Origin: Tortispora ganteri
Taxonomy: Eukaryota
DNA length: 64,000 nucleotides
Assembly: GCA_003707115.1 (NCBI GenBank)
Contig: PPNB01000010.1
Span: forward strand, 186,001 to 250,000
Reading direction: 5' to 3'
Position numbers and translations under genes: made by a program. Positions 44,137 through 64,000 of this stretch are shown one piece after another. A model generated the notes under the pieces. It was not told the origin of the DNA. It saw only the letters and a program-made list of their open reading frames with translations, and did not search any database. Each line of letters opens with the position of its first letter. The stretch's first letter is position 1.

Positions 44137-47019
44137 ATGTTCGCTCAGAGTGGAAATGTTATGGGTCCCGAGCCTCTGCCAGAGGTCGATATTGGCCAAA
44201 TGTTTATGGTGGGGTTCGATGGCCCCGAAATTGACGACAATGTGCGCGTACTCATTGAACAATACAAAATCGGCAATATTCTTCTCAGCGCGAAGAACTT
44301 GATCGACGCAAAGCAGGCCTCCAGCTTGATTGCGAAACTGCAAGAAATAGCTTTTCATGCCGGTCACAGACAACCGCTTACTATCGCCATAGACCAGGAG
44401 AATGGCATGCTTAACAATTTGTACGACTCTGAGTATATTACGCAGTTCCCTGGCGCTATGGCAATTGCAGCTACTGCAAGCACGGACTATGCTTACAGTG
44501 TCGCCAAAGCCACTGCCCAAGAAATGAAGGCATGTGGTATCAACTGGATTCTCGGCCCAGTGCTTGACGTTTTCACAACTTCAAGTAACAGACTTCTTGG
44601 AATAAGAACTATGGGTGACGATCCCAATGAGGTTGCCGATCTCGGAATAGCCCAAATAAGAGGCTTCCAAGAAGGTGGAGTAATGGCATGCGGCAAACAT
44701 TTTCCCGGCTACGGAAACGCTATAATCGATAACTTGCTCAGTCTTCCTGTTGTGAACGACACTGTAGAGCAGCTGGAGATGGCTCCTTTAGTACCGTTTC
44801 AGAAGGCTGGATTGGCCGGGCTGGACTCCGTTATAGTCGGTGGCTGTGCAGTTCCTAAAGTCGCCTACAACGACATGCATGCTTGCTTAAGCCCTAGAGT
44901 CATAAAAGGTATGCTCCGTGAGAGACTGGGATTTCAAGGGGTTGTACTGTCTGAATGCTTGGAAATGGGTGCTCTTCATGAGAAAACCGGTATCCGACAA
45001 GGCGCCGTAATGGCTGCTAGTGCTGGCTGTGATATTATTTTAGTATGCTCGAGTAATACTTTGCAGAGAGACGCATTCACTGGTATGTGTGATGCATTTG
45101 CAAGTGGAATCTTGCATGCTGACGTTTTTGCGTCCATTTCCCGCATTTCACACATGAAAGACAAGTATCTTAACTGGCAGGATGCTATGCACCCTGCAGG
45201 AATAGCGCTTTTAAAGCGTCTTCGACAGGAACATTCACTTTTATCTCGCGAAGTATATGAAAAGAGCACTACACTGGTACGCAATCACACAAAATTAATT
45301 CCTCTTAACAATTCAATCCCGCCGGATGCCAGCATACTGTTGCTTACGCCGCTTGTTATTCCTCTAATATCTTCAGTGAGAAACGCCGACTCTTCAAAAG
45401 GTCTGTTCATTGGCGAAGATGTTTTTTTGAAACTAGGACAAGAGTTTGCTAAATTTCACCCGGGAAAAATATTTCACACGACATACACAGCTAATGGTAT
45501 ATCTAATGTACACGAGAAGCTACTGAAGAAATCACAGATTGTTGTGATAGTTACCACTGATGTCACGAGGAACATGTACCAGATAGGCTTCACGAAGCAT
45601 ATATCACACATATGTTCTTACGAACGAAAACCTGTCATTATAGTTGCTGCATCCAGTCCCTACGATTACAGTCTTGATAGAGGCATTGGAACGTACTTGT
45701 GTTCCTACGAGTTCACTCCAGAAGCTCTGGAATGTCTTGCGCGCGCAATATTTGGAAAGTTGTTGCCTACTGGACGAATTCCAGGCACCGAGAACAGACC
45801 AAGCAAAGTTGTACCTGGCCCCACAAATAGATGGCTGGTAGACACGTACGATGCTAAGATTCATTTAAACAGTCTGCTTGAACTTTGGACGCGTTGTTTT
45901 CCTGAGTCAGAAGTCACTGCAGACTTTTTTGAGATATTGTCAGATCCAAGTCAGAAGCATTTTATTGTGCAAAACTACAGCACAAACGAATTGTACGGTT
46001 TTGCCGGAACTTGGGTATCTAACAAGGGCCGACTAGGGAGTCTTTTAATGATATTAGTTGATCCGGCTAGACGGAATATGTCTATTGGAACCTCGCTGCA
46101 TTTGAGTGCAATGCGGTATCTTATAACTGATCAGCATGTGAAACGAGTCAAGCTTGGATCGTCGATCCCGCTATTTTTTGGTGGATTGCCGTCCTTTGAA
46201 GACCTATCTATTATCAGAGACGCGAATCATCTTCCGGATCCATCAAAGGACAGTGTATCGGGTAGTTTTCTTCAATTTGCGCAGCAAGAACGAGAGAGCG
46301 TATTAGCGAAGTGGTTTTCTGACTTAGGATGGGATACAACTACGTCAGTTGTTGCCGCTGGCACGAATTCAGCACACGGCGCAGAAGTAGATGGGTCACC
46401 GACCACACTTGGAGACTCTGATACTGCCGGTTCCCAAGGTACTATTAGGAACGAACGGTCTATGATGATACTGAAGAACCTCGAAGAATGGTCACCGATG
46501 AGACATGTTGTGCAGGAACTGAAAATGGTTGGTGTGATGTTCGATATATGTCTCTCCGAAATGGATGATCAGATTTCTGGGCTCATTGCGCAGCAGCCGC
46601 CATTGATGCAAGACCAGTTGAATATGCTGTATGACGCTGCAAGAGAGAGATTAGATTCAAGGGTTATTGTTGCTGTGGAGAAAGATTCTAAGGAGATTGT
46701 AGGAAGCATAGTACTGTTTACAAAGCACAGTTCAGTTGCGAAGTTTCACCCGTGGATCAACGAGTTTAGGTCAAGGTTTGTTGCAGGTCTGTCTTCGCCT
46801 ATTGTAAACGGTTCATACCAGAACCTTGCGGGTATATTTACTCTTGGGCTTGTATACTCGGCTTTGCGACATTTAAAAATGCAGAACTTCACTTCGTGTA
46901 TTCTCGGAAGGGTTGATTCTACGTTAGAGAACACATTCATAGGGGCTGGGTTTACGACATGGAGGAGGTTTACAGAGATCGAGATGAGTGCTGCGCGGTG
47001 GATGACTCCTGACATGTGA
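44137..47019 (+). CDS. NGS1: GH3 beta-N-acetylglucosaminidase-like plus GNAT fusion; GlcNAc sensor Ngs1/Nag3
   Basis: GQMFMVGFDG, IAIDQENG, KHFPG, LRERLGFQGVV, a GH3 C-terminal domain, then GNAT motif A (ILVDPARRNMSIGTSL) and a second degenerate GNAT-like region. Confidence 0.85.
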   Translation: MFAQSGNVMGPEPLPEVDIGQMFMVGFDGPEIDDNVRVLIEQYKIGNILLSAKNLIDAKQASSLIAKLQEIAFHAGHRQPLTIAIDQENGMLNNLYDSEYITQFPGAMAIAATASTDYAYSVAKATAQEMKACGINWILGPVLDVFTTSSNRLLGIRTMGDDPNEVADLGIAQIRGFQEGGVMACGKHFPGYGNAIIDNLLSLPVVNDTVEQLEMAPLVPFQKAGLAGLDSVIVGGCAVPKVAYNDMHACLSPRVIKGMLRERLGFQGVVLSECLEMGALHEKTGIRQGAVMAASAGCDIILVCSSNTLQRDAFTGMCDAFASGILHADVFASISRISHMKDKYLNWQDAMHPAGIALLKRLRQEHSLLSREVYEKSTTLVRNHTKLIPLNNSIPPDASILLLTPLVIPLISSVRNADSSKGLFIGEDVFLKLGQEFAKFHPGKIFHTTYTANGISNVHEKLLKKSQIVVIVTTDVTRNMYQIGFTKHISHICSYERKPVIIVAASSPYDYSLDRGIGTYLCSYEFTPEALECLARAIFGKLLPTGRIPGTENRPSKVVPGPTNRWLVDTYDAKIHLNSLLELWTRCFPESEVTADFFEILSDPSQKHFIVQNYSTNELYGFAGTWVSNKGRLGSLLMILVDPARRNMSIGTSLHLSAMRYLITDQHVKRVKLGSSIPLFFGGLPSFEDLSIIRDANHLPDPSKDSVSGSFLQFAQQERESVLAKWFSDLGWDTTTSVVAAGTNSAHGAEVDGSPTTLGDSDTAGSQGTIRNERSMMILKNLEEWSPMRHVVQELKMVGVMFDICLSEMDDQISGLIAQQPPLMQDQLNMLYDAARERLDSRVIVAVEKDSKEIVGSIVLFTKHSSVAKFHPWINEFRSRFVAGLSSPIVNGSYQNLAGIFTLGLVYSALRHLKMQNFTSCILGRVDSTLENTFIGAGFTTWRRFTEIEMSAARWMTPDM

Positions 47020-47191
47020 ACCTCCGTTAATTTATATTATTTTTTGTGAAACATTATTATGACGATATCGCTATCACACCTCTCACAATTAAGGTTTGAT
47101 GTCTTTATATCGAGTTTTCTTTGTGATATCTGTCATTAGGACAAGAAGAAACTACTGGAAACAATTATATTCGGGTGAAATAGTGCGCATA

Positions 47192-47208
47192 AGCACAAAT
47201 TTTGTGCT
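47192..47208. promoter_or_regulatory. Palindrome AGCACAAA-T-TTTGTGCT carrying two Ndt80-type CACAAAW sites
   Basis: Perfect 8-bp inverted repeat. Two more TTTGTG at 47043-47048 and 47120-47125 in the same intergenic region. Confidence 0.5.
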
Positions 47209-47637
47209 GTTAAATTGCCGAAATAGGTTGTATAATCTCAAAAACCTGTGTTCGAATACTGGCTGGACTATGTGCCAAAAAAAGAAAAATGGCTGAGAAT
47301 TGAGTTACACATTAAGGTTTCTAACACTTCATAGGTTAATATAGTAAAGACATTATCGCGGTCAAATCTACAGCGGTGATTAACAGCTGTAATAAAATAG
47401 TAAACATACAGACACTGCAAAAACAAACAAAAGAATTACTCCACTACACGACTGGTTTTCACTGAAGACCTGGCGTAAAATAATACATAAGCAAAGTTAG
47501 CGTATAATTAAGGTTTGAGCCGCAGTGTACATCCTCTTTCCCCTCCCTTTCACACACTCACGTACAAAATCATACCCTCCAAGTACCATATATATTGCTT
47601 CTACAGTATTAGAAACGCTCGCTGGCTCGTCTTTAAG

Positions 47638-49092
47638 ATGAAATCCGAGTATCCGGACTCTTCGGACTCAGAAATGAATGCGGAATATAAACTGCGCAGA
47701 TGGTACGAACGGTCACTTAAGATCGGCAAATGGAAGCTCCTCCCATTTAATCACAGTTTTGTCCAACTTATAATTGTCGCTTTCGTCTGCTTCTTATGTC
47801 CAGGCATGTTCAACGCTCTTTCAGGTCTTGGTGGTGCTGGGCAGCTTGATCCGAAGACAATAAATAACGCTTACACCGCGTTATACTGCACTTTCGCCAC
47901 TGTCGGTTTTTTCTCCGGCACCGTCTGTAACATCATCGGTGTACGTGCTTGTTTGTTTCTCGGATCTATTGGCTACGCCGTATATTCGGCATCTTTGTTG
48001 TGCTATAGTCATACTAGCAACAGCGGCTTTGCTATTTTTGCTGGCGCTCTTCTCGGAATCTGTGCGGCTCTGTTGTGGACAGGCCAAGGTGTAGTGATGA
48101 TGTCCTATCCCACAGAAGGATACAAAGGACGATACATAGGCACCTTCTGGGCTATCTTCAACTTTGGTGCCGTAATAGGGGCACTTATACCACTTGCTCA
48201 GAATATTAATCTTGCCACAAAAGGATCCATTAAAGATAGTACATATGCCACTTTCCTTGGCGTCATATGTATCGGAACAGTTATATCCTTGACCTTGCTG
48301 CCGCCTTCTAAAGTCGTACATGATGATGGATCGCCCGTTCAAATAAAAGAAACACTCGGATATAAAAATGAAATACTCATGCTTTACAAAGTGCTCAAAT
48401 CAGACACATATATTCTCTGGCTCTTTCCCATGTTTTTCGCCTCAAACTGGTTCTATGCGTATCAATTCAACGACTTCAATTTGGCACTTTTCAACGTCAG
48501 AACTAGGTCCCTCAACAATGTCTTGTATTGGACATTCCAAATAGTAGGTGCTGTCATTTTTGGTTTCCTATTGGACTTAAAACAGTTCAAAAGACGGTCG
48601 AGAGCTATCGCTGCATGGGTTGTCATCTTCGTCGCAACAAATATCATATGGGGGTGCACTTACTTATCTCAGACAGGGTATGATAGAGTCACCGCAGAGC
48701 AAATAGATATGAACTGGACGCATGAGGATTATCCCAAATATTGCGTTTTGTACATATTTTTCGGTATTTACGATGCTATTTTCCAGTCCTATTGCTACTG
48801 GCTCATGGGCGCTCTCACAAATGACCCGCATAAACTTGCATTGTTCGCAGGATTCCTTAAAGGAATCCAATCAAGTGGCTCAGCAATAGCCTGGAGACTC
48901 GATGCTCTCCACATCCCATATATGAATATACTTGCTTCGACGTGGGCTTTGCTAGGAGCCTCACTATTATTTTGCATTCCAATCACCTTCAGGAGAATTA
49001 CGAACACCACTACAGAGTTGCTCAATGAAGATGCTGATCGTCTTTTCGTCAGTCTTACTGACGATAAAAACACCAACAAAAATGAGCATTAA
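47638..49092 (+). CDS. NGT1: UNC-93-like MFS transporter; GlcNAc transporter Ngt1-type
   Basis: FVCFLCPGMFNALSGLGGAG, LWTGQG..MMSYP, FPMFFASNWFYAYQFN, RTRSLN, YWLMGAL; sits between NGS1 and an Ndt80 factor. First ATG at 47638. Substrate is inferred from context. Confidence 0.75.
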   Translation: MKSEYPDSSDSEMNAEYKLRRWYERSLKIGKWKLLPFNHSFVQLIIVAFVCFLCPGMFNALSGLGGAGQLDPKTINNAYTALYCTFATVGFFSGTVCNIIGVRACLFLGSIGYAVYSASLLCYSHTSNSGFAIFAGALLGICAALLWTGQGVVMMSYPTEGYKGRYIGTFWAIFNFGAVIGALIPLAQNINLATKGSIKDSTYATFLGVICIGTVISLTLLPPSKVVHDDGSPVQIKETLGYKNEILMLYKVLKSDTYILWLFPMFFASNWFYAYQFNDFNLALFNVRTRSLNNVLYWTFQIVGAVIFGFLLDLKQFKRRSRAIAAWVVIFVATNIIWGCTYLSQTGYDRVTAEQIDMNWTHEDYPKYCVLYIFFGIYDAIFQSYCYWLMGALTNDPHKLALFAGFLKGIQSSGSAIAWRLDALHIPYMNILASTWALLGASLLFCIPITFRRITNTTTELLNEDADRLFVSLTDDKNTNKNEH

Positions 49093-49554
49093 ACCTTCTC
49101 CTAATATATACTTGCGTTTCTTATCGCGCTCTGATTTCTTAGCCGATACAAACTCTATTTGACGTTTTTATGACATTTTTTAAGCTTCCGGTGCCTTAGC
49201 TGGCTGTCGATGCTTTTACAGTAATTATACTTTAATTAACCGTTATTCATGGTTACATTATTTTGAATAGCTGCTTATTTTTTAACTATTAATTAATGTA
49301 GTCCCTCTTTCAATCACTGCGTGCCCTCATGCACGTGTTTCTTTTTTAGCTTGCTATTGTAATTATATCGCGTGAACCATCAATACCCTAACCTCAGCTG
49401 TCTAATTTACCTAGCAACGTGCATTCCCCGCCTACTAGAGTATCATTTCCCTCCCTGCCTCCAATTGCAAGAAAAGCAAACTAGTCGATTGCGTGCTATT
49501 TTGCGCCACTTCCACTAACTGCATCCTATTCTTATCCTCTTAATTACCAAGAAA

Positions 49555-51390
49555 ATGGATTCTACAGCTTCTGCCGATGATGATTTTTCGGCATTCCTTC
49601 TGCCAATGCTTGCAAACGGTGATAAGAACTCCTTACAGCATGAGCAGGATCTTCGCGACGACGACATTCATCTCTCACCGGGAATGCCTCTTTCCTGGGC
49701 AAACTACCGACGGCCTACAACTGGACCGGCAATGATATCTGAATTACCGTCTATGTTGCTTACAGATACGACAGGCCCGTCCATGCATGTCACTGTGGAC
49801 TCTGCGCCTGCCGATGACACATCTACTTATCTATCAGCATCCTTATTTGGACGAAGAGATTCCTATTTCCATTACGGCGACCTCATTCCTCCTGAAGCCA
49901 CTTCTGGTACCCCGTTTTCGATGCGGTACACGCTAGATTCTCAGGAACCTATTGACGCCCACACGTCGATCTATCCAGACGCCAGGCATATTTCTAGTAC
50001 TTTTTTCCAGAGAGACTCTAGCGGCCAGGACCTCGGCCCTGATCCTCTGGATTCCGATAATAATGAAAGTCCCGTCAATGTATACTCAGGTGGCCATATA
50101 GGTCCTAAAAGCATATCTCCACATAGAACAAACAACGTTACGTTTCTCAATCATCACAGCTCATCTGTTACGCCAACCTCTGCTCAGATTGATTCCGATA
50201 ATCACATATTTTTAAGGCATGCTCCAAGCAGTAATGACAGTTCTGATACAAAATCACATCCTCCTTATGACGATCACTCAGCCAGCCATCTTTTCTTGCA
50301 TCTCTTACCTGCCCAGTATCACGCTTCCGTATTCGACTCTCATAAGCACAAAGTAATTGTTGACGTTGAAATGAGCATGCTTGGAAAATTTCTTTTAGTG
50401 CCAGAAGCTTGCATTGAAATACCCAAAGATCAGATACACCCCGATAATCCAGATGTACCTATCGTCTTTCATAGACGGAACGGCATTCAGATCACTGGAA
50501 CTTTATCCAATCTAAATAAAATCGCTACCTTGAAAACAACTAAGATGAAAACAGAGCTTCCTGTGAAAAGATTATTTCTGGAAGTAGCAGGCTGCTCTAC
50601 TAATACCAACGAAAGCCCGCAACTCACGACATCTAACCCTCACTCCTCTACGACACGAAAACTTTCCGATAACGCTAACGAAGATGATGAAGTACCAAAA
50701 GGCAGCTATGGCCCTCATCCTTCTCCTATTCCATTGTCAACAGATTCTGACCTTACTACATTCGCCTGGAAACGTATATTGTTTCGGTCGGCGACTGCCA
50801 ATAATGGCAAGAAACGTATGATGCAAGAGTACTACTTTCTAAAAGTTCTACTAAATGCTGAATTACAAGATGGTCGCATTGAGACTATATTGTCTGCCAA
50901 ATCAAGGCCTCTGATCATTCGCGGCCGCAACCCACGATCTTATATTGTGAAAGTTGCACTGCCAATTAATCTTCCCCGCGGTAGAGAACCAAGACATTTG
51001 ACCAGCGATGCTTCTAACGATCTCAAAGATCCTCTAAGTATACACAGTAACTCAATCGAGAAACCTACTTTCGCATCTAATGATGATCATGTAGGAAAAC
51101 ACTCTAATGACGAATTGAGTGTTGACTCAGATCAAAAGAAAAGAAGGGTTGACGATTCTTCTCTCGCGTCAGGCTCACCACGCCCATTGATTCAAGGAAA
51201 CTACGAGTATATTCCTATCAGTGTTAATTACTATATGCCGCCAGTCGAAGTAGTTTACCGTCCACATGCAGCTCACCATCCGCAATTGCGAAGGGTATCG
51301 ATGCAATATGGTGTGCCTTACGTTGGAGCCCCGACTAATATTAAAAAGTCAGCCTTGGGACGTGCTGGAGCGGTGAGTGTGAGATATTAG
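49555..51390 (+). CDS. Ndt80-family transcription factor of the RON1/REP1 type
   Basis: Ndt80 domain motifs HRRNGIQITG, WKRILFRSATANNGKKR..QEYYFLKV, SRPLIIRGRNP; C-terminal YEYIP...YYMPPVEVVYRPHAAHH. Confidence 0.85.
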   Translation: MDSTASADDDFSAFLLPMLANGDKNSLQHEQDLRDDDIHLSPGMPLSWANYRRPTTGPAMISELPSMLLTDTTGPSMHVTVDSAPADDTSTYLSASLFGRRDSYFHYGDLIPPEATSGTPFSMRYTLDSQEPIDAHTSIYPDARHISSTFFQRDSSGQDLGPDPLDSDNNESPVNVYSGGHIGPKSISPHRTNNVTFLNHHSSSVTPTSAQIDSDNHIFLRHAPSSNDSSDTKSHPPYDDHSASHLFLHLLPAQYHASVFDSHKHKVIVDVEMSMLGKFLLVPEACIEIPKDQIHPDNPDVPIVFHRRNGIQITGTLSNLNKIATLKTTKMKTELPVKRLFLEVAGCSTNTNESPQLTTSNPHSSTTRKLSDNANEDDEVPKGSYGPHPSPIPLSTDSDLTTFAWKRILFRSATANNGKKRMMQEYYFLKVLLNAELQDGRIETILSAKSRPLIIRGRNPRSYIVKVALPINLPRGREPRHLTSDASNDLKDPLSIHSNSIEKPTFASNDDHVGKHSNDELSVDSDQKKRRVDDSSLASGSPRPLIQGNYEYIPISVNYYMPPVEVVYRPHAAHHPQLRRVSMQYGVPYVGAPTNIKKSALGRAGAVSVRY

Positions 51391-51434
51391 GTAATTTTAG
51401 CAATGCCGCCATAATACTATCAGATTTACATTAT

Positions 51435-53216
51435 TCAAAAGGCACTAGCAATACCTTTAGCAAGTTCGGCAACACCAACTGCACCTGGATCAGGGATTCC
51501 TCCTTCCTCGTTGAAGTTTGAGAGTTCCTCCTGAGACACATAAGAAGCACGGCCAAATTTAGCTTCCAGTTCCTTTGTGCTGTTAGCTCCCTGTTCTGCG
51601 GCGCTAGCAGCAGCCTTGATACCGTCACCATTAGCCAATGCATCAACAAATGGTACAAGCGCATCTATCAAGGTACGATGACCAGGACGTGCTTTGGTGT
51701 ACTTGAACAAAGCATCTAAAGCTGCCTTTGATGCTTTTCCTATTTCTTTTGAAGATACGTCTCCTTTAATTTTGGCAACTTCACCGGCTAGAGCTGAAAG
51801 GAAAATGGCATACAGGCCACCCGAGGTTCCACCCATAGACTCTTCAACGATGTGTGTAAGCGAATAAATTGTGCTAAATAGGTTAGAGGTGTCAATAGAC
51901 TTGTCTTTAAGGGCTTTAGAGACAGCTAATGCACCATCCTTAAGAGTCTCGCCACAGTCACCGTCACCTGCAATAGTGTCGTAGCGAGTAATCTTTGGTT
52001 CAGCGGAGATCAGGTTGTCGACAATACCGTTTAGAGCCTTCTCAACAACTTTTGATTCCACAGGAACGTTGACAGCACTTGAAGAGTCATCAGTTTTCTC
52101 TTGAACAAGAGACTCCTTGATCACATCGAACTTGTTAGTTTTCCAAGATTCAGAAGAAACGAAGTTGTTCCATCCGGTGAATCCACAGCGGGCGTCGAGC
52201 AGTTCAAGGACAGAACTGTTTCCAGCGGCTGAAGCATTTGTTGCGTTCAATAAGGTGATACTGAAACCTTCACCGTTGAGCGCAGTAATGAAAGGACCGG
52301 CATAGACACGTACTGGGGTAATTGAATACTTAGACTTCAACAGCTGGACGGTTGCTTCGACTATTCCGCTGAATTCAAGTGCTGACAGACCGCCTAGATT
52401 GTTCACAAGTAGTACTATATCATCAGATGAATCAAACTTCACAAAAGCACGGTCCTCATCGCTGGTATCCAATATATATGGCAGCAGTTGAGAGACTAGA
52501 TCAGGCACAGTGGGGATGGGGCTGAGACGTCTGATGCCGGGCTCGTTGTGGATACCCATGCCTATTTCCATCTGGTCGGCCTTCAAGAGTTCGGTATCGG
52601 TATGGGACCGGCCAGGAATAGTGCAGTGATCCAGAGATGCGCCAATCGTGGCGGTATTGTCTATGACGGCTTGAGCAAGGGTAGCGACAGCGTCGAGATC
52701 GGCGCCGGTAGCGGCAATGGCACCAGCACATTTGTGCACAAGTACAGTTCCAGCAAGGCCGCGTCTGCCGACGAGACCTCCCTGTTTGCGACCTACAGCA
52801 GTATCATCTGTGACTATCACCATTCGAATGTCTTGGCCTTGCGCCTTAGCGCGCTCGGCAGCCAGACCGAAGTGAATGATGTCACCAGTATAGTTCTTGA
52901 CGATAATCAGTGTTCCTTTAGGCGAAGCAATGGCTTTGAGGCCAGCAGTGACCTGATTACTGGAGGGTGAGGCGAATAGAGCACCAGCCACAGCAGCATC
53001 TAAGCCAGCATGACCAACGAATCCACCGTGAATGGGTTCGTGACCACTTCCGCCTCCTGAAAGGAGAGTAACTTTGGGATTGGAAGGATCGGGTCGTCGG
53101 AAGAGAACGCGATCTGCTTCGAGCAAAGAGACGTCAGGATTTTGGCGGAGGACAGACTTCAGAGCAGCGCCAATAAGATCTTGACCGGTGGTATCGAAAT
53201 GTTTTCCAGAAGACAT
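51435..53216 (-). CDS. Dihydroxyacetone kinase (DAK1/DAK2 family)
   Basis: SGGGSGHEP, KNYTGD, VGRRGLAG, GMGIHNEPG, GDGDCG, MGGTSG, GRASY, DPGA. ATG (MSSGKHF) at 53216. Confidence 0.94.
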   Translation of the reverse strand: MSSGKHFDTTGQDLIGAALKSVLRQNPDVSLLEADRVLFRRPDPSNPKVTLLSGGGSGHEPIHGGFVGHAGLDAAVAGALFASPSSNQVTAGLKAIASPKGTLIIVKNYTGDIIHFGLAAERAKAQGQDIRMVIVTDDTAVGRKQGGLVGRRGLAGTVLVHKCAGAIAATGADLDAVATLAQAVIDNTATIGASLDHCTIPGRSHTDTELLKADQMEIGMGIHNEPGIRRLSPIPTVPDLVSQLLPYILDTSDEDRAFVKFDSSDDIVLLVNNLGGLSALEFSGIVEATVQLLKSKYSITPVRVYAGPFITALNGEGFSITLLNATNASAAGNSSVLELLDARCGFTGWNNFVSSESWKTNKFDVIKESLVQEKTDDSSSAVNVPVESKVVEKALNGIVDNLISAEPKITRYDTIAGDGDCGETLKDGALAVSKALKDKSIDTSNLFSTIYSLTHIVEESMGGTSGGLYAIFLSALAGEVAKIKGDVSSKEIGKASKAALDALFKYTKARPGHRTLIDALVPFVDALANGDGIKAAASAAEQGANSTKELEAKFGRASYVSQEELSNFNEEGGIPDPGAVGVAELAKGIASAF

Positions 53217-53519
53217 TTTGCGAAGTAAATGGAAAAGGAACCAACCCACCTGAACGTGGGTAATTTATATAAAAAACCAAACGCCCACGCCTGCCAACCT
53301 TATTACAATTAACTTTCTCGATGACCGTCAAAGAATGCCCGGAAATGTGCGGTTAGCAGGAAATTATTATTGGAATAGCGTATCATAAAACGCAGAAAAT
53401 TGAATGACATGTGTTAGTGTGCAATATACAAGGTGCGCCATGAGATAGACAGGTCAAAAAAGGACTAATAGGTATGGATAACTAATATTGCATCCCCACG
53501 CTTTTGCGGGTGGGATAAC

Positions 53520-58712: not shown

Positions 58713-61277
58713 ATGACTACGGCTTCAGAAGAAAACAACCAGCTCCTCGAGGAAGCGCTGCAAAATGTGAAGAAACATGCAGCGCTCATGAGATCTACTG
58801 TAAACGTGCGAGGAAAACTTATGGATACCGTAAAACAAGCGTCGCTCATGCTAGCGGAACTTCGCACTTCTTCATTAGGTCCGCGGCAATACTACGAACT
58901 GTATACTGCAGTTTTCGACCAATTGGGCCAACTAACTTCTGCTCTACGCGATGGGCATCCAGGAAATCACCTTGCTGATGTGTACGAACTTGTGCAGTAT
59001 GCAGGAAATATAGTGCCTCGCCTCTATCTCATGGTCACTGTCGGAACGGCTTTCATGTCCGTTTCAGACGCTCCCGTCAAAGAAATCATGATGGATATGT
59101 TGGAAATGTGTAGGGGCGTGCAACACCCGATACGCGGACTGTTTTTGCGCTACTACCTTTCGCAGACTACTAGAAACTATCTACCCATAGGCACCGATTC
59201 TGGACCGGCAGGTAACCTTAACGACTCGGTAACCTTCGTCCTCACTAACTTCGTCGAAATGAATAAACTCTGGGTTCGTCTGCAGCACCAGGGTCCTTCT
59301 AAAGAACGCGAAAAGAGACTTGCAGAACGTCAAGAACTTCAAATACTCGTCGGCTCTAACCTTGTCCGTCTCAGCCAGCTAGACGGAATAGACCAGGACA
59401 TGTACAGAGAGACCATCTTGCCTGCTATTCTTGAACAAATCGTCCATTGCCGCGATGTTCTTGCGCAGCAGTATCTATTTGAAGTTATTACTCAGGTCTT
59501 CCCTGATGAGTTCCATCTCCATACCCTCGACATGCTTCTCGACGCCATCAAGAAACTCCGTCCGGAACTGAAGGTGCAACCTATTATCACTGGACTTATT
59601 GACCGCTTGACGAACTTTGCTATTCGTGAGACTGATGCTTTGTCTTCTGAAGAAAGGAGCATTCTCAAATCTCGTGAACAACAACATCTACAAGATTCCT
59701 TGGCGTCATTACGTTTGTCTACTGAAGATACCGAATCTGACGAGGAAACGAGTCAAACTGCAGCCGATTTTGAACATACAGATATGCAATCTGAACCTTC
59801 AAAGGTATATGGAATTCCTTCAGATATAAACTTATTTCAAATATTCTGGTCACATATCCAGGAATTGCTTGAAACGAAATCTGACATTCCTAAGAAAGAT
59901 ATTGCTGAACTTCTCACTAGCCTATTGAACTTATCGTTAGTATGCTATCCTGCACACGCTCAAAATGTTGACAAGGTATTGGAATATGCTACTAAATGCT
60001 TTGAAGCAGCTTCTGAAACTCCCGACCCCACCCCCTTAGAAACTTCTGAAAGTGTTCAAAAACTACTCATGTCTCCTGTTAACCATTACAGCTCTATTTT
60101 AACAGCTTTGGCACTGCCTCATTTTGTTTCTTTGCTTAACGTGCAACCATACGGTACACGCAAGGCAGTATCATTGGCGGTTTTGAAGAGTGTGATCCAG
60201 AATAGATTAAAGCTTTCCACAGTGCAAAGCGCTGAAGCGGTTTTCGATGTTATCATGGTATTTATTAGAGACTCGCACCCTGATTCTGTTTCAAATGGTA
60301 CTTCGAGAGTCGCTGAACAGGAGCAGGTTGTCCTGGAACAGGGGTTGATAGCACGTATGTTGCACCTTCTTACTGCGGAGAACATTGAAACAGAATTTGC
60401 ACTTCTTCAAACTGCAAGTAAACGGCTCACAAAAGCGTCACCTGACAGACAGATCTTTACTATACCTTCACTAGTATTTCAATCTTTGAAGGTGGCTCGA
60501 CGGTTTAAAGCCTCTGAAGCTGATGACACCGAGAAGAAGCAAAGAATCTCGGATGTATTTAAGTTTATATTCAGACACATTTTGGATATTCATAGAATGA
60601 TGGGTGCTACGAGCTCCACGGTTGCCGATTTATGTTTCATGCTGTTTGCAAGCGCAGCCGAAGTCGCTGATCAATTAGAACTCGAAGATGTTTCTTATGA
60701 ATTTTTTGCGCAAGCGTTTACAGTATATGAAGAATCAATATCTGACTCAAGGTCACAGTTTCAAGCTGTGTGCCAAGTTGCAGGTGTACTTCAGCGCACT
60801 AGGAATCTCTCGACAGAAAGCTACGACACTCTTATTACGAAATGTGCACTATACGGATCTAAACTACTAAAAAAGTCTGATCAGTGCCGTGCAGTTTACC
60901 TTGCCAGCCATCTATGGTGGGGAACGGAGTTACCGAGTGATGCCCCAGGCAGCGAAGGATCGCTGTATCGGGATGGTAAGCGTGTTTTGGAATGCCTTCA
61001 ACGAGCGTTGAGAGTTGCAGATGCATGCATGGATCAATCGCTAAGTGTACAGCTGTTTGTTGAGATTTTGAATCAATATGTGTATTATTTTGAGAGGGGC
61101 AACTCTGCTGTTACTGTGAAGTACCTCAATGGGCTGATTGAGTTGATTCAAAATAACCTTGACAATGATACTGAGATGGTCATTCCGGATGGGCCGCGTA
61201 AGCACTTTCAGCGAACATTGGATTATATTTCACGGCTCAAGGAGACGGACGAGAGGTTTGCGCAGGCATCATGGTGA
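58713..61277 (+). CDS. VPS35: Retromer subunit Vps35
   Basis: ELRTSSLGPRQYYELY, QYAGNIVPRLYL, GVQHPIRGLFLRYYL, KRVLECLQRAL. Likely ATG (MTTASEE) at 58713. Confidence 0.96.
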   Translation: MTTASEENNQLLEEALQNVKKHAALMRSTVNVRGKLMDTVKQASLMLAELRTSSLGPRQYYELYTAVFDQLGQLTSALRDGHPGNHLADVYELVQYAGNIVPRLYLMVTVGTAFMSVSDAPVKEIMMDMLEMCRGVQHPIRGLFLRYYLSQTTRNYLPIGTDSGPAGNLNDSVTFVLTNFVEMNKLWVRLQHQGPSKEREKRLAERQELQILVGSNLVRLSQLDGIDQDMYRETILPAILEQIVHCRDVLAQQYLFEVITQVFPDEFHLHTLDMLLDAIKKLRPELKVQPIITGLIDRLTNFAIRETDALSSEERSILKSREQQHLQDSLASLRLSTEDTESDEETSQTAADFEHTDMQSEPSKVYGIPSDINLFQIFWSHIQELLETKSDIPKKDIAELLTSLLNLSLVCYPAHAQNVDKVLEYATKCFEAASETPDPTPLETSESVQKLLMSPVNHYSSILTALALPHFVSLLNVQPYGTRKAVSLAVLKSVIQNRLKLSTVQSAEAVFDVIMVFIRDSHPDSVSNGTSRVAEQEQVVLEQGLIARMLHLLTAENIETEFALLQTASKRLTKASPDRQIFTIPSLVFQSLKVARRFKASEADDTEKKQRISDVFKFIFRHILDIHRMMGATSSTVADLCFMLFASAAEVADQLELEDVSYEFFAQAFTVYEESISDSRSQFQAVCQVAGVLQRTRNLSTESYDTLITKCALYGSKLLKKSDQCRAVYLASHLWWGTELPSDAPGSEGSLYRDGKRVLECLQRALRVADACMDQSLSVQLFVEILNQYVYYFERGNSAVTVKYLNGLIELIQNNLDNDTEMVIPDGPRKHFQRTLDYISRLKETDERFAQASW

Positions 61278-62180: not shown

Positions 62181-64000
62181 ATTGAGTGCACAAAGAAAAA
62201 CAAGATATGCGATGTAAATGGGCGGGTAGGAGACAAACTAACTGTTTTAGTGTAACAGTGGTCTAAGTGATTCCGATAAGGTTAAAGGTGCGAGAGCTAT
62301 TACTGAGCGAAGGCTGATTACAAAATTGTCGAACGCAGTGTTAGCAGGAAACAATGATGATATAGCGACAATTTATATTTGGCAAAAATTGAACAAAATA
62401 ATAGGTAATGATTACATGCTATGATTGATCTGAGTTCTTACTGATGAGGTTGGGGACGTAGATAGTTCTAATACAATGACTTGGGCTGTGAACTGCTCTA
62501 AACTCCTATAAACTAATGCAAAACCCGATTAGACTTGTAGAGAAAAATAGTCAATAGCATTGTAACTGTCTATGTAAAACAAGAACAATGTTTATAGGGT
62601 GGTGGGAGTGCAGAGTCATTATAGTATTATACTCAATGAGCCAACTATATGAGCTGTGTAACGTTATTGTTGTACATTAGGAAGTTCAGCTCAAACGTTC
62701 ATATTATCATTACGGTGCCAGTCTATGTAGTCAAACTAGAAATTCAACTATTAAAATAGTGAATATTAAAATAATATATGTCAATAAGGCTTGAAACAAG
62801 ACTATTCAGCTAAATCGATATTGATCTAAACGCGCCTGTTATGCACGCATTCTGAGACACTTTACTTGTGTCATTAACATTAAGGTTTTTTATACAATTA
62901 CAGGCGGTGAACTAAAATAAGAAAAGCACGGAAAATGACAGCCAATAACGCACATTTTAAAAGTCTAGATCATTTACCTGCACATTTAAGATAAAGTAAT
63001 AACCCCAAAAAGTCACTGTCAGCTAAAGGCGGCTGATATGTTTTAGATGGTTATGTTAAGACTTATACAGAGTCGTAGAGTATACTAAAAGTGCGAAATA
63101 CGAAACAATACCTATTTATACGAATCTCCGTTGTTTATAATAGTCTCTTAGCGCTTCAAATATTATTAAATCTATCATAAATGAGGCTGTGAAAATTGAA
63201 AAGCAAACAATTAGTGATTTTAGGAGTTTGAAAATGACATTCCAGCGTGAACTTAATAATAGTTAAGATTTTCGTCACTTAAGAGCATCTCATATTAGTT
63301 TGAAGAGACAATAGATCTTGAATTAGACTAACTGTTAAGAAAATGCGTGCACATTTTGCGCAGTTTATCTCAATTAAATAGTGATGTTAGTCTCGACCAT
63401 CGGTGAAACAGATCATAATTAGGTAAAATAGCCGCTAAAATCTTTGTTGCGAATCGTTGGAATTAGGCCAAGAACTGATGCATTAATTAGGAAAAAATCG
63501 GAGAATGAATTTATTGCCAGACATAATGCTTCGGCTATACAATAGCTGTGTTCATATAAACCTATTTAACTCGATCAAAATGTTGATCACCACACACGAA
63601 CTGTCTGTTCCATTTGCTTTTACCTTAGAGACTTACTTGTGCATAATATTGAACCAGCTCGTCTACTTCAGCAGTTTCATAGCTATAATCTAAACTTTCA
63701 AACTAACTAATCAACCTTGCCTAAATGTGCAATTCGTTTACTCAATGAAAGTGTAATGTGAAGTACATTTGGGACCGGATCGTGATGTACGTTACTTCAT
63801 TATTTTTTGATGTCCCGTGGCTCACGAGGATCAGCTGTCAGCCAATGAATGAATCGCTAACTGAGGTGCGCTTTTGCATTCTATTTCTTTTTTTTATAGC
63901 TTTCCTCTAATGTGTAGATTTATTTTTTTTTGTATTTATTAAGCCACAGAACATATAAATTAATTAAATATTATTAATTGCAGTATTGCACCTTTACGAG

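Follow-up and report, generated by a model that had tools for sequence, protein, structure and literature searches.

Three adjacent genes of GlcNAc-related families in Tortispora ganteri

We analysed a 64,000-nucleotide stretch of the Tortispora ganteri genome (the window; assembly GCA_003707115.1, contig PPNB01000010.1, positions 186,001 to 250,000 of the forward strand) which holds a cassette of three adjacent genes related to those for N-acetylglucosamine (GlcNAc) sensing, import and transcriptional response in other fungi. All three are uninterrupted open reading frames (ORFs) without internal stops and, like every cassette feature given below, lie on the + strand: an NGS1/nag3 orthologue (44137-47019, 960 amino acids) combining a GH3 pseudo-hexosaminidase, an alpha/beta middle domain and a GNAT region, an NGT1-like UNC-93/MFS transporter (47638-49092, 484 amino acids) and an Ndt80-family transcription factor of the REP1/RON1/XprG clade (49555-51390, 611 amino acids). 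At the genome level the new observation is a sensing module intact in sequence with both committed enzymes of GlcNAc catabolism, the deacetylase DAC1 and the deaminase NAG1 (DAM1), apparently lost; a putative GlcNAc kinase is encoded on another contig. The parts and their mechanism are known and it is their combination that is new. No publication on this locus in Tortispora was found in the open literature, subscription papers, including the genus description, lying outside that search.

Pfam searches assigned Glyco_hydro_3 (E 1.5e-61, residues 17-336) and Acetyltransf_1 (E 2.8e-08, residues 578-673) to the first ORF, UNC-93 (E 2.7e-14) and MFS_1 (E 3.1e-13) to the second and NDT80_PhoG (E 1.4e-18) to the third. 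Together with the ORF coordinates this agrees with an initial annotation, made from the sequence alone, which had described adjacent, co-oriented genes for GH3+GNAT, UNC-93-type MFS and Ndt80-domain proteins. The chance of three given genes out of about 4,700 being consecutive is about 3e-7, and the arrangement is no assembly artefact because contigs of a public run, possibly non-independent of the window's own source, bridge both the NGS1-NGT1 junction (40000-48011) and the NGT1-REP1 junction (48013-53195). The spacers had also been described as wide for the window. NGS1 is preceded by 935 bp compared with 139-555 bp in the nine other divergent spacers, while the tandem spacers of 618 and 462 bp compare with 125-336 bp in five of the six others; all three are thus the largest of their classes except for one gap of 2,100 bp.

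The sensor gene

By sequence and domain architecture the first ORF is an Ngs1-type GH3 pseudo-enzyme/GNAT sensor, as first proposed. Its GH3 barrel (44185-45144) retains D86, R157, K187 and H188, which are invariant in all 21 aligned sequences and lie at a constant offset of +12 from C. albicans D74, R145, K175 and H176, the equivalence being drawn from the motif and this offset from the published positions rather than from an aligned C. albicans sequence. The C. albicans residues have been reported to be required for GlcNAc binding (PMC5063960). The catalytic Asp-His dyad and the nucleophile Asp are lost, the catalytic loop and nucleophile differing from active RmNag in an alignment to RmNag and Paenibacillus NagZ, and catalytic-residue loss of this type has been described for Ngs1 (PMC12176254). 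The GNAT domain (45868-46155) carries motif A with invariant V641 and G651, whose 10-residue spacing equals that of C. albicans V686 and G696. The best match in the PDB, both by sequence and by the fold of the predicted model, is the R. miehei GH3-GNAT protein 4zm6. In a phylogeny the protein joins yeast (Dipodascales) homologues with a bootstrap of 100%, and the homologues of filamentous fungi lie separately. This grouping indicates vertical inheritance and rules out horizontal transfer of NGS1. As a separate observation, the narrow-diet yeast Nadsonia fulvescens has a long-branch NGS1 homologue and is a candidate second case of the sensor without the enzymes.

Two in-frame GT..AG stretches interrupt the similarity near the 3′ end of the gene. 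The first (46191-46265, 75 nucleotides) is probably an intron, because neither the T. caseinolytica model nor any of the 19 other aligned homologues contains it; residues 689-718 of the predicted model, in the region of this stretch, have low model confidence (pLDDT). The T. caseinolytica model likewise lacks the second (46344-46448, 105 nucleotides), which could be either an intron or a variable linker, insertions at this place occurring in NGS1 homologues of other yeasts.

The transporter and its upstream spacer

The NGT1-like protein is the sole match of its family in the genome and is 45-49% identical, over the best segment, to all five transporters examined that are embedded in fungal GlcNAc clusters. 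For several of its top matches, in Sarea, Chaenotheca, Dothideomycetes NU459, Bogoriella, Arthrobotrys and Orbilia, the locus tag is only a few genes away from that of an NGS1 or RON1 homologue. In a tree of 58 sequences (52 of 120 matches, the five cluster copies and the window protein), built without a true outgroup or C. albicans Ngt1, it falls among yeast homologues, and the branching follows the species tree, with weak support at the key nodes (0.40 and 0.77). The UNC-93/MFS domains and the closeness to GlcNAc-cluster transporters bear out the initial reading as an Ngt1-like protein; the second gene is probably Ngt1, strict orthology being graded likely.

In the spacer upstream of NGT1 (47020-47637) a 10-mer promoter element occurs three times, at 47088, 47311 and 47507, with a further copy 5′ of the kinase gene and one elsewhere in the window at 62879. 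As a module-specific Rep1 site the 10-mer was ruled out by its 131 genomic copies (31 for the reversed control) and by its surroundings: of the first 30 loci, 29 fall between unrelated genes and one is at a contig end. At 19 of 28 loci an ORF of either orientation begins no more than 400 bp away. The element resembles the site of some general promoter factor in the lineage, and may be similar to Tbf1-type sites. Pairs of 10-mers 183 bp apart recur on the small contigs C643, C670, C680, C704 and C746, which points to a repeated element. Contigs C25 and C36 nearly duplicate each other, which suggests that they are haplotigs.

The transcription factor and its predicted contact with Ngs1

The third gene appears from its similarities to be of REP1/RON1/XprG type rather than a meiotic Ndt80, a class assignment that draws on RON1 similarity and a common C-terminal motif, not on a tree with the Ndt80 clade. 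Together with the NDT80_PhoG domain these features uphold its initial description as an Ndt80-family RON1/REP1 factor. The beta-sandwich of the protein (residues 245-463) matches the DNA-binding domains of MYRF and Ndt80, and RON1 proteins of GlcNAc clusters were matched at E 1e-12 to 1e-20. Against S. cerevisiae Ndt80 a single-sequence search gave no match up to E 10, and a profile match had an E value of only 0.003. A word-based search with the DNA-binding domain returned the T. caseinolytica protein alone, and a HMMER search returned RON1/VIB-1-like proteins, with no named meiotic Ndt80 among the nine looked up. No NDT80_PhoG gene other than the Rep1-type one was found in the genome, a canonical meiotic NDT80 not being retrieved with this query.

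The conserved C-terminal motif (residues 550-575, 51202-51279) is a candidate Ngs1-binding element, and was matched in 19 of the 24 fungal loci having a RON1 hit. Of 149 representatives, 31 match the motif in a strict form and 44 in a loose form; short sequences are frequent among the rest. In the interface analysis the motif was conserved in 23 of 23 sequences, these having been partly selected for it. The motif of Arthrobotrys conoides is close to that of the window protein.

A complex prediction for Ngs1 residues 12-958 and Rep1 residues 535-585 scored 0.68, compared with 0.01 for the best control, the Rep1 partner being a low-confidence 51-residue peptide, a class outside the calibration of the score, and 7 of 44 blind neighbours also passing. 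Among microbial pairs, 51 of 78 that are solved and 2 of 108 that are mismatched attained the mark applied to this score; for eukaryotes the figures were 39 of 65 for solved pairs lacking a similar complex and 2 of 126 for unrelated pairs. The runs agreed in at least 34% of contacts, with a partner pLDDT of at least 41. In the predicted complex Rep1 547-556 runs along Ngs1 441-451, so that Ngs1 residues 427-462 (45415-45522), with an edge strand at 445-451, would form the docking surface for the motif. As a hypothesis, the modelled interface fits a two-hybrid result from Yarrowia, in which the Rep1 C-terminus was reported to mediate Ngs1 binding (PMC12570498), and does not fit the C. albicans result considered below. 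It bears at residue level on the disagreement between an N-terminal (C. albicans) and a C-terminal (Yarrowia) site.

Committed enzymes and an unlinked kinase-like gene

The initial annotation had described the neighbours of the trio as unrelated to it and the window as free of a GlcNAc kinase, deacetylase and deaminase, and both statements were borne out. The 27 other scanned ORFs have no link to GlcNAc, 25 having Pfam families (including POM33, Dak1/Dak2, TFIIB, EF-3 and Vps35) and two having none, and Pfam found no hexokinase, deacetylase or deaminase among them. Hidden Markov models (HMMs) of fungal DAC1 and DAM1 found no remnant or pseudogene of either in the six-frame translation of the window, the 935-bp spacer included (best E 5 and 4.9).

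The search was extended to the whole genome, where neither DAC1 nor NAG1 was retrieved by profiles or fungal protein queries. For NAG1, the TIGR00502 profile gave 0 matches on the genome contigs, and PF01182 and a fungal NAG1 query returned only a 6-phosphogluconolactonase, at 29% identity. The search for DAC1 gave 0 matches with TIGR00221 and with a fungal DAC1 protein, and PF01979 returned only a guanine deaminase, an allantoinase and a third protein that lacks a match to nagA. Both TIGR profiles recognise the fungal query proteins, with E 1.9e-120 and 1.6e-66. No GH20 hexosaminidase was matched in the genome search, nor did the NAG1-directed searches retrieve an alternative deaminase. The earlier suggestion that the enzymes might be lost therefore holds for DAC1 and NAG1, neither of which was found, but probably not for the GlcNAc kinase, a divergent HXK1/HXK3-like gene being present on another contig.

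This third hexokinase was found by genome search on contig C557 at about 349178-350710, the cassette lying on C446, and we read it as a divergent HXK1/NAG5 orthologue and putative kinase. Its best BLASTP matches are HXK3 proteins (162 bits versus 91 and 67). In a tree without an HxkD-type paralogue it falls on the HXK3 side, outside the canonical pair at 100%. It has HXK3-type residues in the sugar-site motifs, keeps the catalytic Asp and carries a 34-residue acidic insertion; its database annotation is hexokinase and nothing finer.

Conservation and ancestry of the cluster

The best homologue of each of the three proteins is from T. caseinolytica, with 97.6% identity over aligned residues for Ngs1 (871/892), 83.5% for the transporter and 89.2% for Rep1. 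The three T. caseinolytica accessions (ODV88849, ODV88848 and ODV88847) are consecutive on one contig, which indicates that this species has the same three-gene arrangement, so that the adjacency is conserved in a relative. Between strains, four of the five differences in NGT1 and REP1 change an amino acid and both differences in NGS1 are silent, in what is a very small sample.

Among 56 fungal NGS1 loci, many of them short, RON1 was found in 25, DAC1 in 23, DAM1 in 11, HXK3 in 10 and NGT1 in five, and one locus (L049) holds all six cluster genes together. NGT1, RON1 and NGS1 occur together in 5 of the 56, with DAC1 also present in all five. Of the 15 loci of at least 20 kb, four have NGS1 and RON1 while the retrieved stretch holds none of the enzymes. 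The locus tags of RON1 and the NGT1-like gene are adjacent or nearly so in Arthrobotrys conoides and Orbilia javanica, an observation that suggests an old NGT1-RON1 linkage.

A six-gene ascomycete GlcNAc cluster has been described, with a split form in A. nidulans, and the same source reports C. albicans REP1 to be linked to NGS1 outside the catabolic cluster (PMC4950302). Judged by gene content, the trio is a remnant of this known six-gene cluster. Because the C. albicans link and the A. nidulans split form are published, regulator linkage without enzymes is not new. The initial annotation had seen the signalling half of the pathway as clustered apart from its enzymes. This is what is found here, although the situation is less unusual than was implied, given C. 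albicans, A. nidulans and the four loci above. Of its two proposals, a split ancestral cluster or a signalling-only module, both apply, the trio being a cluster remnant in a genome where neither committed enzyme was found. The flanking genes, POM33 (42413-43201) and dihydroxyacetone kinase (51435-53216), lie beside NGS1 in none of the 56 fungal loci (0/56), and the neighbourhood of the cassette is for this reason considered lineage-specific.

Other features of the window

The 2.1-kb gap (36413-38512) lies 5′ of the EF-3 gene and has no ORF of at least 100 amino acids, tRNA or Rfam match. No tRNA was found in the window, and there was no Rfam match within 36000-52000. The VPS35 and HlyIII-family ORFs are convergent and overlap by 9 bases at 61269-61277. 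At 53357-53469 both public runs of the organism contain two alternative contigs, which fits heterozygosity.

A proposed module for signalling and salvage

With moderate confidence, we favour a working import-sense-transcribe module that serves signalling and the salvage of GlcNAc into its uridine diphosphate form (UDP-GlcNAc), and not growth. The protein identities, key residues, adjacency, enzymes not found and kinase-like gene are direct results and the Rep1-Ngs1 contact is modelled, while transport, ligand binding, histone acetylation and target genes would be as in other fungi. The locus would then be a regulatory remnant of the ancestral cluster, kept functional after loss of DAC1 and NAG1. 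Ngt1 would import GlcNAc, which would bind the catalytically dead GH3 barrel of Ngs1, and Rep1, via its C-terminal motif, would hold Ngs1 at promoters, where Ngs1 would acetylate histones and so change transcription. Without deacetylase or deaminase the sugar could not reach fructose-6-phosphate, which would leave two outputs: salvage, in which the unlinked kinase would yield GlcNAc 6-phosphate (GlcNAc-6-P) for UDP-GlcNAc and chitin, and GlcNAc as a cue for other Rep1 targets such as GAL, cell-wall or morphology genes.

Published work on other yeasts offers parallels. GlcNAc control of filamentation in Yarrowia is reported to require Ngt1, Nag5, Rep1 and Ngs1, and not Dac1 or Nag1 (PMC12570498). 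S. cerevisiae (PMC9550789) and C. glabrata (PMC12947576) are described as keeping a GlcNAc kinase without catabolism, and Rep1-Ngs1 has been reported to induce GAL genes on GlcNAc in C. albicans (PMC9925049). In Tortispora, GAL1, GAL7 and GAL10 are listed for seven of seven species, with growth on galactose in six of seven and on glucosamine in none (PMC11067038). No growth data on GlcNAc were found for the genus, the trait table having a column for glucosamine and none for GlcNAc.

Several points weigh against this interpretation. The enzyme search covered a single draft assembly of 1,044 contigs, T. caseinolytica lying outside it, and used a loose first filter through which the TIGR00502 search missed a weak lactonase match (E 6.6e-7). 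Glucosamine non-growth is weak evidence, because Yarrowia is reported to fail on glucosamine while having NAG1 (PMC4376941). Uptake combined with an active kinase should be costly, because single dac1 and nag1 mutants of Yarrowia are described as poisoned by GlcNAc on glucose (PMC12570498). The kinase itself has a long branch (2.44), a His for the Asn before the catalytic Asp and a 4-residue deletion. Of its 48 diagnostic columns 16 are of HXK3 type, 10 canonical and 22 neither, and an HXK3 HMM, which does not separate the three hexokinases, ranks it below both ordinary ones. Divergence is more rapid in the transporter than in Ngs1, and S. pombe, although it lacks the pathway, has an UNC-93 protein with 48% identity to the transporter. 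At the predicted interface 6 of 21 Ngs1 residues are invariant, with no significant enrichment (P 0.13-0.18), and in C. albicans it is the AD (N-terminal) region of Rep1 that has been reported to recruit Ngs1 (PMC9925049).

Among the alternatives, it is unlikely, in our estimate, that the module has become uncoupled from GlcNAc, with Rep1 serving galactose or starvation responses (XprG-like control of proteases and phosphatases), Ngs1 acting as co-activator for another ligand or none, and the transporter drifting. An Ngs1-independent role of Rep1 in galactose induction is reported for C. albicans (PMC9925049) and control of starvation proteases for XprG (PMC4950302). REP1 is also the sole Ndt80-family gene found in the genome, the transporter is the less conserved towards T. 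caseinolytica (83.5% versus 97.6% for Ngs1) and GH20 gave no match. However, the GlcNAc-binding residues of Ngs1 are intact, the transporter ORF is intact and lies between both regulators in two species, and galactose does not explain Ngs1, because deletion of ngs1 in C. albicans is reported to leave growth on galactose unaffected (PMC9925049).

That this is an ordinary split cluster in a yeast that catabolises GlcNAc, with DAC1 and NAG1 in an assembly gap or overlooked by the search, strikes us as rather improbable. A search of 1,044 contigs without a match does not show absence, split clusters are common and Ngs1 is reported to track with catabolic genes (PMC4950302, PMC5063960). Yet two genes, or three with HEX1, would need to have been missed by searches that did retrieve weaker paralogues, and the contigs of two runs from this organism add up to 9.53 and 9.55 million letters, close to the 9.63 Mb of the assembly.

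A relic in early decay, its enzymes recently lost and its regulators not yet eroded, would account for the diverging kinase and transporter and for the amino acid changes in four of the five NGT1 and REP1 strain differences, a very small sample. We hold it to be highly improbable, as Ngs1 differs at only 21 of 892 positions between species, both of its strain differences are silent and no DAC1 or DAM1 remnant lies beside the locus. Finally, very little weight can be given to the GH3-GNAT protein being a metabolic enzyme, either a glucosamine N-acetyltransferase like R. miehei RmNag, the closest solved structure, whose GNAT region is reported to acetylate glucosamine (PMC12176254), or part of a non-canonical catabolic route, since the protein nests among Ngs1/NAG3 orthologues with their catalytic-residue loss and no alternative deaminase was found.

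The favoured module for signalling and salvage can be extended to a bolder proposal, which we regard as possible though doubtful. Tortispora would be a natural dac1 nag1 hex1 yeast in which selection has maintained a complete GlcNAc import-sensing-transcription module solely for reading the sugar as a signal, of insect chitin or of bacterial wall in rotting cactus (a cactus habitat is described in PMC11449361), while a weakened kinase would spare the cell from poisoning by GlcNAc-6-P. In the same proposal, proteins of the Rep1/Ron1/XprG type would generally dock on the Ngs1 middle domain by a strand formed by their C-terminal motif.

Fungal GlcNAc signalling and catabolism are hard to separate since catabolic mutants are poisoned by the sugar and reports of the sensor have come only from fungi that also have the enzymes. 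If the favoured reading is true, a wild yeast with sensor, transporter, factor and kinase and without deacetylase or deaminase would give access to a catabolism-free Ngs1-Rep1 regulon by RNA sequencing, and would test how cells escape GlcNAc-6-P toxicity. It would also be an exception to the published co-occurrence of sensor and enzymes, NGS1/nag3 having been reported by Kappel et al. to be absent from yeasts without both enzymes (PMC4950302).

Comparison with known systems

The closest parallel in gene content is the ascomycete cluster, described in T. reesei as nag3/ngs1, ron1, hxk3, dac1 and dam1, with or without ngt1 (PMC4950302), which contains the same three families. Here, in contrast, neither the locus nor the genome searches yielded DAC1 or DAM1/NAG1, the kinase-like gene is on a contig other than that of the cassette, and the transporter gene is flanked by NGS1 and RON1. 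In A. nidulans the RON1 and HXK3 orthologues are XprG and HxkC, and xprG is reported to adjoin nag3 in the split cluster (PMC4950302); A. nidulans keeps the enzymes, unlike the genome studied here.

The Ngt1-Ngs1-Rep1 system of C. albicans follows the same transporter-sensor-factor logic, with REP1 linked to NGS1 as described (PMC5063960, PMC9925049), although C. albicans keeps HXK1-NAG1-DAC1 and HEX1, unlike the set found here. The catabolism-independent branch of Yarrowia is reported to need Ngt1, Nag5, Rep1 and Ngs1, which is the set retained in T. ganteri (PMC12570498). Yarrowia has the full pathway, however, and its cluster is given as NAG2-NGS1-NAG5 with REP1, NGT1 and NAG1 elsewhere, unlike the arrangement here. 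S. cerevisiae Ngk1 (PMC9550789) and C. glabrata CgNgk1 (PMC12947576) are described as GlcNAc kinases without catabolism, and a kinase-like gene is likewise kept in this yeast. Of the six cluster genes, five, the regulator among them, are reported to be lost in the Saccharomycetaceae, whereas T. ganteri keeps four.

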